From Escherichia coli (GTDB lineage Bacteria; Pseudomonadota; Gammaproteobacteria; Enterobacterales; Enterobacteriaceae): a stretch of 64,000 nucleotides of DNA. Made by a program: the position numbers. Location: assembly GCF_030013205.1 (NCBI RefSeq), contig NZ_CP122648.1, one strand, 5' to 3'. Shown here one piece after another: positions 25,270-28,200 of the stretch (position 1 is the stretch's first letter; each line of letters opens with the position of its first letter).

Positions 25270-28200
25270 ACCCGCATACTATGCGGTCTTCAGTAATCAC
25301 ACGAATTACCGTGAAAGCCAGCACTGGTCTTTCCGACGGTAGTAACACCCCTGTGAACACCAAAATAACCGTCTTCCAGACCGACGAGAATACTAACGAC
25401 ATTTTTTCAGATATCAAAAATATATTTTGTTTTTAGTTTTTAATATATGTATGCATCTGTATCAGAAATATACAATTTATATCATTACTAAATTAAAAAC
25501 ATTTCTCTGACGTCTGATTAAAACGTTCCTGTTCCAGTTCCGCGCCAATCACACATGGTCATTGCGTTTTACCAGTCCATCGCCACTATCAGGCTGACCA
25601 GGGGACGCCCCACCCGAACTGCTGAGAATGCCAGGCACACAAAGAATAATGCCCGCCAAAGCGTTCCTGCATACAATGACTGCAAAATTCAGTTATTCTT
25701 GAGCGGAGCCAGAACTCATCTCACTGAATGCAGCCATCCTGTAACCTTCCGGGGTGACCCCAAAATAACGCCTGAATACACTGATAAAATAAGATGTATT
25801 ATTATAGCCACACTGCACAGCGATTCTGTTGATGGCACAGCTATATTGATGCAACAGCATTGCTGCCATTCTCATTCTCTCCGTAAGCAACAACTCACTG
25901 AAACATGTGCCTTCTTCTTTCAGTCTTTTTTTTAACAAACTTTCACTCATACATAACCGTGATGACACATCTCGCAGAGTCCAGTTTGCTGCAATGTCTG
26001 TATGAAACAACGCACCAAGCCTGCCGCTGATAGTACTGATACACGCGGTCATAAACGACGAAAACATTTTATCTGATGAAAAAAACGCCAGACACGAAAA
26101 GGAAAGCATTTCCGCTAAATTGTCCGTATGAATCTTTTCCTCATAAAGATAATCAATCAGGATGCCCATCAATTCTGGCCTGGGAAAACTCATGCAAAGA
26201 TATCGTGGCATTTTCCGGACTAAAACAACATCCTGTTTTACCCCACTACGCAACAGGTAACGGCTAATTGTCGATTCACTGAGACTTATACGCCGAAAAC
26301 ATTCAGAAAAGGGCAATAACGGTCCAGCCCCTCCCCTGACAAGAAGTGCACTACCACTTTCCAGAGAGAGTACTTTTCCTTCGAAGAGCACAACAAACGG
26401 GGAATGAACAAAAATAACAGAACAGGCCTCATTCATATCAATATCCCTGACATTACTGGTCGCAAGATAAGTATATATCACTTTACAAAAATGCAAGCCG
26501 TGAGCCCCGAATTCACGACCACCAGCGTGTTTACTGTACTGCACCAGGTTTACAGGTACAAAAAACCGCTCGACGGCGGGTTTAAGCTGTGTGGCGAAGT
26601 AACCACTCTTAACAGATTAAGATAAAATTTGCGGACCGCGGTAATTTTTTTTGCTAAATTAAAGCCATATAAAAAATAAGATCCATAAGAAATTATTAGT
26701 ATACTAAGGTTTAACATGGCTACTATTGCGCAATCAAAGAAACAAAAAAAACTTAAAATTGGTTTTTACACCAGCAGTTCTGGGACTATCCGCAGCCATT
26801 CAGTTGCTAAGCAAGCAATTGAAAATCTGTATAATACTTGCGTAACCGTTACGAATAATCATTTTGATACCATCTATAGAAATAAAAAGTTAAAAATAGC
26901 TTTTATAAATAAAGATACAAAAGCTAAATATTTCTTCGGCTACATGTCATGCTCACGAGAAGAGTATCTCCTTCCTTATATTGGTGATGAACACTGGAAT
27001 GAGCACAACATACCACTAGATGATAAAAAATACATAGTCGAAAGAACCTATTTTTTATATTATTACGATAGTGATATTTTAATATTAACTCAAAATCATC
27101 TTGGGCCGAAAGAATCGGATTTAGCTTATCTGCTTTACAGCCAGAGTGGTAATCCTGGAAATAACTTTTCATTCCAAGCCATCTGGAAAAAAGAGAGCGT
27201 CAAAGAGCTACTTGAAACAGGAAGTACTTTGAGAAGTTGTGATATTGTCCTGGCTGCTCCCAGGAACTTTGATGCAACAAATTACCAGCTAAATAGTTCA
27301 TTTTCTAAGGAACTGGTAAATATGATGGTAGGGCTGGGTGGAACACGTCTCAAGTTAAATCTAAGGGGACGTGCATCAGGGAGAGTAAAAGTCAAAGGTT
27401 ATTTATCAGATCTCGTTAAGGATGGTATTAAAGAACTCCTTGAAAAAATGCCGGGAATTGTAAAAAAAGCGGCAGTAACACAGCCCAAAAATACCGTTGA
27501 ACAAAGTCTTCTTGATCAGGTACTCATTTCAGAAAAAAACATATATACCGTTAATGGTTATGGCACTGATAGTGATGTTCTGCAAGCCATGATTTCTGCT
27601 AAAATTGATAACAATGAATACCTTAAGCAATACGATATCAGCAAAAAGAAGGTATAGGATATGTTATTGAAATACTTAAGAAACCTGATTGTAAGTGTTT
27701 TTTGCACCTTGTTCCTACTGAGGTATATCCCTCAGATGGGGCATGCTGACATACTTACAGCCTCCGGGGTTATTTCAACTGTATCCGGTATTTTATTTGG
27801 TTTTATTTTAGCCACAATATCAATTTTTAGTGCTGCTAGCGAAAACTCAAATGGAATAATAAAAGCATTAAAAAACAACAACATACTTCAAGTTATTATT
27901 GTAAATCTATTAACCGCAGGTGCATCTTTAATTACGGCATGCGTTATTGCTTTGATAGCAATGTTTGCCAATGAAAAGACATTGTTACATGGAGAAAAAA
28001 TAGAATTTATTTTAATTATCGAATCTTTATCTCTTCTTATCATTTCAGTAATAACTTTTGCCTTTACATGGAGAAAAGTAAACTGGATACTCCCCCACAT
28101 TTAAAAAGGGCAGAAATGCCCTTTTTTCTACTCCATTTCAAGTTTAACATCCAGCATTGAAAGGCATCCATCAATAAACCCTTCAGCCATCTGTATCTCT

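Follow-up and report, generated by a model that had tools for sequence, protein, structure and literature searches.

A stretch of 64,000 nucleotides (nt) from the Escherichia coli contig NZ_CP122648.1 (RefSeq assembly GCF_030013205.1), here called the window, carries a cassette of two adjacent genes whose products are a soluble protein of 313 amino acids (aa) and a membrane protein of 147 aa. In evolutionary terms, this pair is very probably a Rex-type module. The best explanation for the data is that the cassette is a self-contained and horizontally mobile Rex-type moron of a lambdoid prophage that is close to phage cdtI. A preliminary description of the DNA had proposed, as its central claim, a divergent Rex-type module located in a non-canonical place. 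That claim is upheld by a match between the fold of the larger protein and that of lambda RexA, by profile homology between the family of the smaller protein and RexB, and by sequences that bridge the families.

In phage lambda, rexAB adjoins cI and is cotranscribed with it. To our knowledge, no abortive-infection system has been known for longer than RexAB, and neither its trigger nor its mechanism is settled. The window genes had been described as mirroring lambda RexA and RexB in size, order, and topology, and both the open reading frames (ORFs) and their parallel hydropathy fit this statement. Each ORF begins with ATG, and the two are separated by 3 nt (TAG gat ATG). The AGAAGG Shine–Dalgarno sequence of the second gene sits within the 3′ end of the first, and the second gene is probably translationally coupled to the one upstream. 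The 313-aa protein has zero hydrophobic segments and is net basic (44 K+R versus 33 D+E). Its partner of 147 aa has four such segments (residues ∼2–22, 37–55, 78–100, and 116–134), at positions nearly identical to those of the hydrophobic segments of lambda RexB. Structure prediction, which had been recommended as a check for a RexB-like topology, gave four long helices for this protein (AlphaFold2 model, predicted local distance difference test [pLDDT] score of 83). ORFs, hydropathy, and model therefore agree with the reported succession of a soluble protein and a protein with about four transmembrane helices, 3 nt apart. Lysine and arginine are enriched at the N terminus, the central loop, and the C terminus of the 147-aa protein; both termini and the conserved central loop are probably cytoplasmic. 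The view that the pair is AT-rich cargo is likewise confirmed. The GC content over positions 26600–28200 is 31%–39%, compared with 51%–58% on the side of the neighboring Q gene and 41%–46% on the other side, and this AT-rich composition marks the block as acquired cargo.

The 313-aa protein was modeled with AlphaFold from an alignment of 35 homologs (35%–87% identity), and the model has a mean pLDDT of 81. When it was compared by Foldseek with 350,542 chains of the Protein Data Bank (PDB), two chains of lambda RexA (8TWQ) ranked at the top (E values of 1.1e-7 and 1.1e-5, probability 1.0), and the runner-up was RdgC. Lambda RexA is the best structural match in the PDB by two methods, at a sequence identity of 9%–13%. 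The domains of RexA that were compared are a globular domain split into two parts (residues 1–139 plus residues 248–279) and an inserted dimerization domain (residues 143–234), and in the 313-aa model the secondary-structure elements follow one another in an order that agrees with such a split domain, a middle domain inserted into it, and a helix at the C terminus. Global template modeling scores between the model and RexA are low (0.35–0.38), as would be expected if the two domains are oriented differently. RexA is known to swivel. The 313-aa protein has the RexA fold, namely a split globular domain with an inserted dimerization domain that is related to RdgC, IML3, and CHL4, and it is encoded immediately upstream of a small partner of the RexB type with four transmembrane helices. 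RdgC, IML3, and CHL4 are named as structural relatives of RexA in the paper on the RexA structure (PMC11077077).

Sequence comparisons also connect the two families of soluble proteins. The 313-aa protein matches the Pfam family DUF6731 (PF20505; E value of 2.1e-10, residues 34–260) and phrog_7651 (E value of 1e-151), and the DUF6731 hidden Markov model (HMM) matches 10 of 16 diverse relatives of the protein as well. When a broadened DUF6731 alignment was compared by hhalign with 24 RexA homologs, residues 13–160 aligned co-linearly with RexA residues 1–140 (E value of 0.005, score 28.0). In the controls, shuffling the columns 30 times gave no score above 23.4, and the reversed profile scored 17.5. 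A narrow alignment of the 313-aa family gave an E value of 0.024, and the signal became stronger only after divergent members were added. Among the aligned positions that are invariant in both families are F17/F4, G130-P131/G108-P109, and D135...L140. In the family alignments, F17, G130, P131, D135, and L140 are invariant in the 313-aa family, F4 and P109 are invariant in RexA, and G108 and L114 of RexA are nearly so. BLASTP against lambda produced sub-significant local matches to RexA (E value of 0.25) and RexB (E value of 0.012), which served only as pointers. The short motifs that the preliminary description listed as parallels (GP..SDL..L, K.GFY, and LLFRHYIPGV/LFLLRYIPQMG) fall in the same segments that BLASTP and hhalign align.

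The evidence for the smaller protein comes mainly from its family. In size (∼145 aa) and in its four transmembrane helices the 147-aa protein is of the RexB type, and family-level homology to RexB is found by profile–profile and by transitive comparison. The protein itself matches phrog_8552 (E value of 1e-63). A profile of the partner family, searched against 1.84 billion representative proteins, retrieved 57 at E ≤1e-3, nearly all of them 135–160 aa in length. Lambda RexB matches the partner-family members P0125 (E value of 2e-9) and P0150, P0101, and P0134 (near 2e-6), and the HMM of the RexB family does likewise. P0125 has a precomputed Pfam match to RexB, and its gene overlaps the end of a DUF6731 gene; the gene for P0143 is likewise placed after a DUF6731 gene. 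When 54 members of the partner family were scanned, RexB was the top Pfam family, with a best E value of 8.7e-7 and four members at E ≤0.1. A Vibrio member also matches the PADLOC model for RexB (E value of 0.0011).

A direct comparison of 59 partner-family sequences with the RexB family by hhalign gave a probability of 83.8%, an E value of 7.9e-6, and a score of 37.2, compared with 13.8 for the reversed control and 16.5 or lower for 30 column shuffles. The alignment spans the end of the first transmembrane helix, the second helix, the central loop, and the start of the third helix. The shared core can be written approximately as H-x-D...A-x-x-S-x-x-G-T/I-L/M-x-G/A-F/I-x-I-A-A-x-S/T, followed by a basic loop. 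As for the larger protein, the signal depends on breadth: a narrow core set of partners gave an E value of 0.013 against RexB, and the match was stronger only with divergent members added. At the profile level, these alignments indicate that the partner family is homologous to RexB and is linked to it by bridging sequences.

Neither protein belongs to a family for which a function has been annotated. DUF6731 (PF20505, PHROG 7651) and PHROG 8552, of which the window proteins are bona fide members, carry no functional annotation, and zero matches were found for either protein to any model of PADLOC-DB 2.0 or NCBIfam. Profile searches against RexA and RexB, also recommended at the outset, left the window proteins unmatched by the Pfam and PADLOC HMMs. 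Lambda RexA and RexB (NC_001416), used as positive controls, match their own PADLOC and PHROG models strongly; the PHROGs of RexA and RexB are phrog_12654 and phrog_14878. Therefore, the negative result for the window proteins is genuine, and they fall outside the curated Rex families. An HMM that we built for RexA gave 9.5 bits or less on members of the DUF6731 family, and a corresponding HMM for RexB, built from the ORFs that lie downstream of the RexA gene in loci of IMG/VR, scored the 147-aa protein below reversed decoys. Judged by these profiles, DUF6731 and its partner appear to be a sister lineage of the curated RexA and RexB families.

The two genes travel together. In IMG/VR, all 80 loci that carry a DUF6731 homolog (43%–100% identity) have a partner-family ORF downstream of it on the same strand, and the gap between the genes is 2–28 nt in most of them. 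The two proteins diverge in step with each other (Spearman 0.79 over 49 distinct pairs). A convergent Q homolog lies directly after the pair in 72 of the 78 viral loci with enough sequence. Elsewhere the pair is found by tail genes, by an excisionase-like gene, by a primase gene whose element is unidentified, by the integrase gene of a tectivirus-like element from Vibrio, and at a Vibrio chromosomal site without phage genes. Members of the two families come from Enterobacterales and Vibrio, from a Pseudomonas phage, and from metagenomic contigs.

The Pseudomonas phage, AUS531phi (MN585195, L031:3096-5282), a phage of P. aeruginosa, provides a link to the lambda arrangement. After its gene for a repressor of the Cro/CI family come, in the same orientation, a DUF6731 gene and a partner gene, which encode proteins of 298 aa (DUF6731 HMM, E value of 3e-19) and 118 aa (partner HMM, E value of 8e-18), all annotated as hypothetical. 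By gene order and profile matches, this is an unrecognized cI-rexA-rexB-like immunity region with the canonical lambda layout.

Two further observations were made among these loci. In several otherwise near-identical IMG/VR loci (L049-L053, L065, and L077), a shorter rexA-like ORF (237, 271, or 132 aa) accompanies an intact membrane gene. Frameshifts or gene decay may account for the short ORFs, or the ORF caller may have chosen the wrong start codon. In phages vB_EcoS-733R5 (ON470608, L033:4001-4942) and vB_EcoS-716R3 (ON470622), a DUF6731 gene that is 87% identical to that of the window is labeled "portal (connector) protein," which is almost certainly a misannotation.

In the window, the cassette stands between a Q-like antiterminator gene and a conserved block (Table 1). 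The block, at 26511–26650, is 82%–95% identical to a segment that adjoins Q in many lambdoid phages. Alignment of these segments reveals an invariant part followed by a short hairpin-terminated leader, with a terminator-like hairpin at 26577–26565, and the block is a probable late promoter/qut/tR′ region. Similarity to other phages ends at ∼26650, the end of this block. In phage 1720a-02, which lacks the cassette, the equivalent block starts directly at the Q stop codon. Therefore, the insertion between Q and pR′ comprises the cassette and ∼65 nt of its own upstream DNA (26651–28127). The cassette converges with Q, stands back-to-back with pR′, and is outside the late transcription unit. This corrects the preliminary description, in which the pair was antisense to a surrounding Q-to-late-gene transcription unit; it actually lies between the Q stop and the pR′/tR′ block. 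The pair was also said there to be relocated, which is misleading, as the Q-adjacent slot is the usual one in enterobacterial lambdoid prophages (the 72 of 78 loci mentioned above, down to 43% identity). Its distance from the immunity region was described correctly. The gene for a cI-like repressor is at 34009–34686, ∼6 kb from the cassette, and cII-like, replication, nin-region, and Q genes lie in between. The cassette is not next to this repressor gene, which is followed by other genes.

Table 1. Coordinates of the cassette and of the features that flank it in the window
Feature	Coordinates	Strand	Remarks or evidence
Conserved late-promoter block, probable pR′/qut and short terminated leader	26511..26650	-	Similarity to Q-adjacent segments of lambdoid phages
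Upstream AT-rich region	26651..26715	+	Shine–Dalgarno TAAGG at 26705-26709; presumed own promoter
rexA-like gene, DUF6731/phrog_7651, RexA-type split two-domain fold	26716..27657	+	313-aa soluble, basic protein
rexB-like gene, phrog_8552	27661..28104	+	147-aa membrane protein, four helices
Hairpin with flanking A-run and T-run	28103..28127		Sequence and fold energies
Q-like antiterminator, 125 aa, convergent with the cassette	28128..28505	-	phrog_79, E value of 5e-45

The cassette and Q meet at a spacer of 23 nt between the stop of the 147-aa ORF (28104) and the stop of Q (28128). On either strand its sequence, AAAAAGGGCAGAAATGCCCTTTTTT, forms a predicted hairpin of 10 bp (−13.4 kcal/mol with a z-score of −4.5, and −13.0 kcal/mol with a z-score of −3.0), and a U-run follows the hairpin in each direction. 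A plausible role is that of a bidirectional intrinsic terminator common to the cassette and the convergent Q gene. A strong bidirectional terminator shared with Q had been proposed here. The shared hairpin, foldable on both strands, is present, but the word "strong" is generous because a scan for consensus terminators did not flag it and its G+C core comprises only 5 bp.

The same slot holds other DNA in Escherichia virus mEp460_4F5 (LR595868, L035:1693-2619), where a 308-aa ORF lies in the orientation of the Rex-like cassette. This ORF was considered as a relative of the cassette and was rejected, as it proved unrelated on comparison. The presence of an unrelated ORF in this slot implies that the Q/pR′ junction is a cargo site, and suggests that it is a hotspot for exchangeable cargo.

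The pair is probably an anti-phage exclusion system that follows the Rex paradigm. In a lysogen, both genes would be transcribed from a promoter of their own in the AT-rich segment 26651–26715, and the transcript would end at the hairpin common to Q. The RexA-like protein, by analogy with RexA, would serve as a cytoplasmic sensor of infection and as an activator. It would be a dimer that binds DNA non-specifically, to which only its net basic composition and its fold point. On superinfection by a phage, this protein would activate the RexB-like effector, whose four helices would lie in the inner membrane. The 147-aa protein may thereby act as an ion channel or otherwise depolarize the membrane. 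Depolarization or leakage would then stop growth, and the infection would be aborted.

Several observations weigh against a Rex-type identity or function of the pair. No match to RexA was found for the 313-aa protein in Pfam, PADLOC-DB 2.0, NCBIfam, or PHROGs, and none to RexB for the 147-aa protein in Pfam, PADLOC, or PHROGs. A DUF6731 profile searched against PDB sequences did not retrieve RexA at E ≤10, and the hhalign comparison of DUF6731 with RexA is weak, with a probability of 7%. Small membrane proteins with four helices readily show spurious similarity, and in a structural search of the predicted viral structures of BFVD with the 147-aa model (best E value of 0.009), lambda RexB was absent from the top 50 matches. 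A promoter for the cassette was found neither by consensus scan nor by upstream alignment: a sigma-70 scan of the plus strand upstream of the genes gave zero matches at 9/12 or better, and the aligned upstream regions of seven alleles contain no convincing conserved −35 and −10 elements. Experimental evidence on the DUF6731 and partner families was not found in the searchable literature. Finally, even in lambda, Rex exclusion is possibly a by-product of another role (PMC11077077).

A link between DUF6731 and RexA or RexB is made in none of Pfam, PHROGs, NCBIfam, PADLOC 2023, or the papers searched. Likewise, the searchable literature yielded nothing on DUF6731, on RexA-like or RexB-like proteins of E. 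coli prophages, or on a Q-adjacent defense hotspot.

One alternative is that the likeness to Rex reflects an ancient fold and a generic four-helix membrane protein that together have another function, such as a different kind of superinfection exclusion, toxin/antidote addiction, or a membrane role that is useful to the host. The lack of matches to curated Rex HMMs and the RexA identity of 9%–13% are consistent with this possibility, as is the occurrence of the RexA fold in RdgC and kinetochore subunits, which are not defense proteins. Furthermore, the roles of the two Rex-like proteins are reversed in phage Butters, which means that the group has no fixed mechanism (PMC12894663). RdgC (PDB 2OWL) and the kinetochore proteins IML3/CHL4 and CENP-N score far lower than RexA against the 313-aa protein, come without a membrane partner, and belong to other biological contexts. 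We consider this first alternative unlikely.

A second alternative, which is compatible with defense and which we regard as quite unlikely to be the principal explanation, is that the pair mainly serves prophage development and that exclusion is a side effect. The DNA-binding protein with the RexA fold would then tune either the passage from lysogeny to lysis or late transcription from Q/pR′, much as lambda RexA biases its bistable switch. Lambda RexA acts on the bistable switch independently of RexB, and the authors of that work doubt that exclusion is the true function (PMC11077077). The nearly constant position of the cassette, with Q on one side and the pR′ block on the other (72 of 78 loci), and the placement of the pair directly after cI in the Pseudomonas phage would suit such a role. 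However, the pair also occurs away from regulatory switches, at tail genes, at the integrase of an unrelated small element, and at the Vibrio site without phage genes. Moreover, a regulator that acts at the level of DNA would not need a membrane partner, and this partner is strictly kept (80 of 80). The last alternative, that the 313-aa protein modulates recombination as RdgC does (by inhibiting RecA-type strand exchange) and has an unrelated membrane protein as its neighbor, is highly improbable, since the structural score of RexA is double that of RdgC, the Pfam RdgC family (PF04381) gives no match, and the partner is coinherited in every one of the 80 loci with a short gap or none and with correlated divergence.

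Returning to a Rex-type exclusion module, a more speculative proposal is that DUF6731 and its four-helix partner form an unrecognized and widespread branch of a Rex superfamily whose genomic position is itself functional. The cassette would be freely expressed in the lysogen, with nothing more than a modest bidirectional hairpin to close it off. After induction, early-right transcription that has been antiterminated would pass Q and run antisense over the cassette. The antisense run would shut off the suicide module, so that the phage's own lytic cycle would not be aborted. We consider this proposal of self-silencing unlikely. If it were true, the cassette would possess a built-in self-immunity that is unlike the coupling of rexAB to cI in lambda.

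The cassette can be traced to a described phage. Positions 26511–28200 are 99.9% identical to Enterobacteria phage cdtI, in which the pair corresponds to orf54 and orf53, both annotated as "hypothetical protein." The RefSeq annotation of the window pair reads "DUF6731 family protein" and "hypothetical protein." A search of 5,426 complete E. coli genomes gave copies that are at least 99.6% identical in 24 of them, and the location is chromosomal in every case.

The prophage carries additional genes of interest. An AraC-family regulator (25693–26544, minus strand; phrog_1450, E value of 3e-58) and a tRNA-Gly(tcc) gene (25201–25275, minus strand) lie just 3′ of the probable pR′/tR′ block and upstream of the holin gene (24350–24742). 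They are late-operon cargo at the position that toxin genes occupy in Stx phages, and phage cdtI has a DNA methyltransferase in their place. At 23040–23633 on the plus strand, opposite to the lysis and terminase genes, is an AT-rich ORF (33%–40% GC) for a 197-aa protein. This ORF has an N-terminal hydrophobic segment and a sequence, LIRHGER, that recalls enzymes of the histidine-phosphatase family, and is probably another moron. Directly 3′ of the cI-like repressor gene and on the same strand are two genes (34958–35602, phrog_204, and 35571–36395, phrog_210; both on the plus strand) with no assigned function. These are candidates for another moron or defense pair expressed in the lysogen, because their slot is that of lambda rexAB.

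Assignment of the cassette to the Rex group provides a probable role for an entire domain, DUF6731, and for its unannotated membrane partner. It also indicates that Rex-type pairs slip past the models used here for their detection (PADLOC 2023, Pfam, NCBIfam, and PHROGs). Since the window pair is uncoupled from cI and tractable in E. coli, exclusion could be studied apart from the part that RexA plays in the lambda switch, which is a confounder there. The Q/pR′ junction in lambdoid prophages is also flagged as a slot for other candidate defense genes, such as the 308-aa ORF of mEp460. The advance is nevertheless incremental, as it extends a small set of Rex-like systems by one further lineage; only five such systems have been described according to a 2026 count (PMC12894663).

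Compared with lambda RexA and RexB (PDB 8TWQ; PF15969 and PF15968), the window pair is distant, with only 9%–13% identity to RexA and no HMM match, and its soluble protein is 35 residues longer than RexA. The genes are not cotranscribed with cI as in lambda but lie ∼6 kb away, between Q and pR′, with a putative terminator of their own.

The validated RexABpp system of Pseudomonas putida prophage P1 (PP_5643/PP_5644; PMC12894663) is near a Cro/CI repressor gene and represents a separate sequence lineage. Its genes were recovered (L116) by use of a primer sequence from the supplement of that paper. Membership of the window pair in the RexABpp family was considered and rejected, since the HMMs of DUF6731 and of its partner gave negative or near-zero bit scores on RexApp (330 aa) and RexBpp (188 aa). 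The best signal between the families was an hhalign E value of 0.004 for the B proteins. In the recovered IMG/VR locus (L116:573-2891), the RexABpp genes are followed by a hicAB2 toxin–antitoxin pair on the other strand. As judged from the primers, the RexApp gene is AT-rich for a Pseudomonas gene and, like the window cassette, looks like acquired cargo.

The Rex-like systems of actinobacteriophages (Sbash gp30/gp31, CarolAnn gp44/gp43, and Butters gp30/gp31) have the same pattern as that seen here, with a soluble protein and a protein with four transmembrane helices that are expressed from a prophage and act against heterotypic phages. Several of them are not adjacent to the repressor gene and are inverted relative to it (PMC11077077). 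Their A proteins are larger (337–372 aa) than that of the window, and the role of effector in Butters falls to the soluble protein. The authors of the Sbash study connect gp30 to RexA through DUF4747 rather than DUF6731, and a loop between helices 2 and 3 of Sbash gp31 is needed for defense (PMC6426596). In BFVD, the 147-aa model has as its second match a protein of Sbash with 165 aa (probability 1.0, E value of 0.03), whose identity as gp31 is taken only from its length. No sequence similarity was detected between Sbash gp30/gp31 and the window pair. By sequence, the pair thus groups with neither RexABpp nor the Sbash system, and it constitutes a further, separate Rex lineage.

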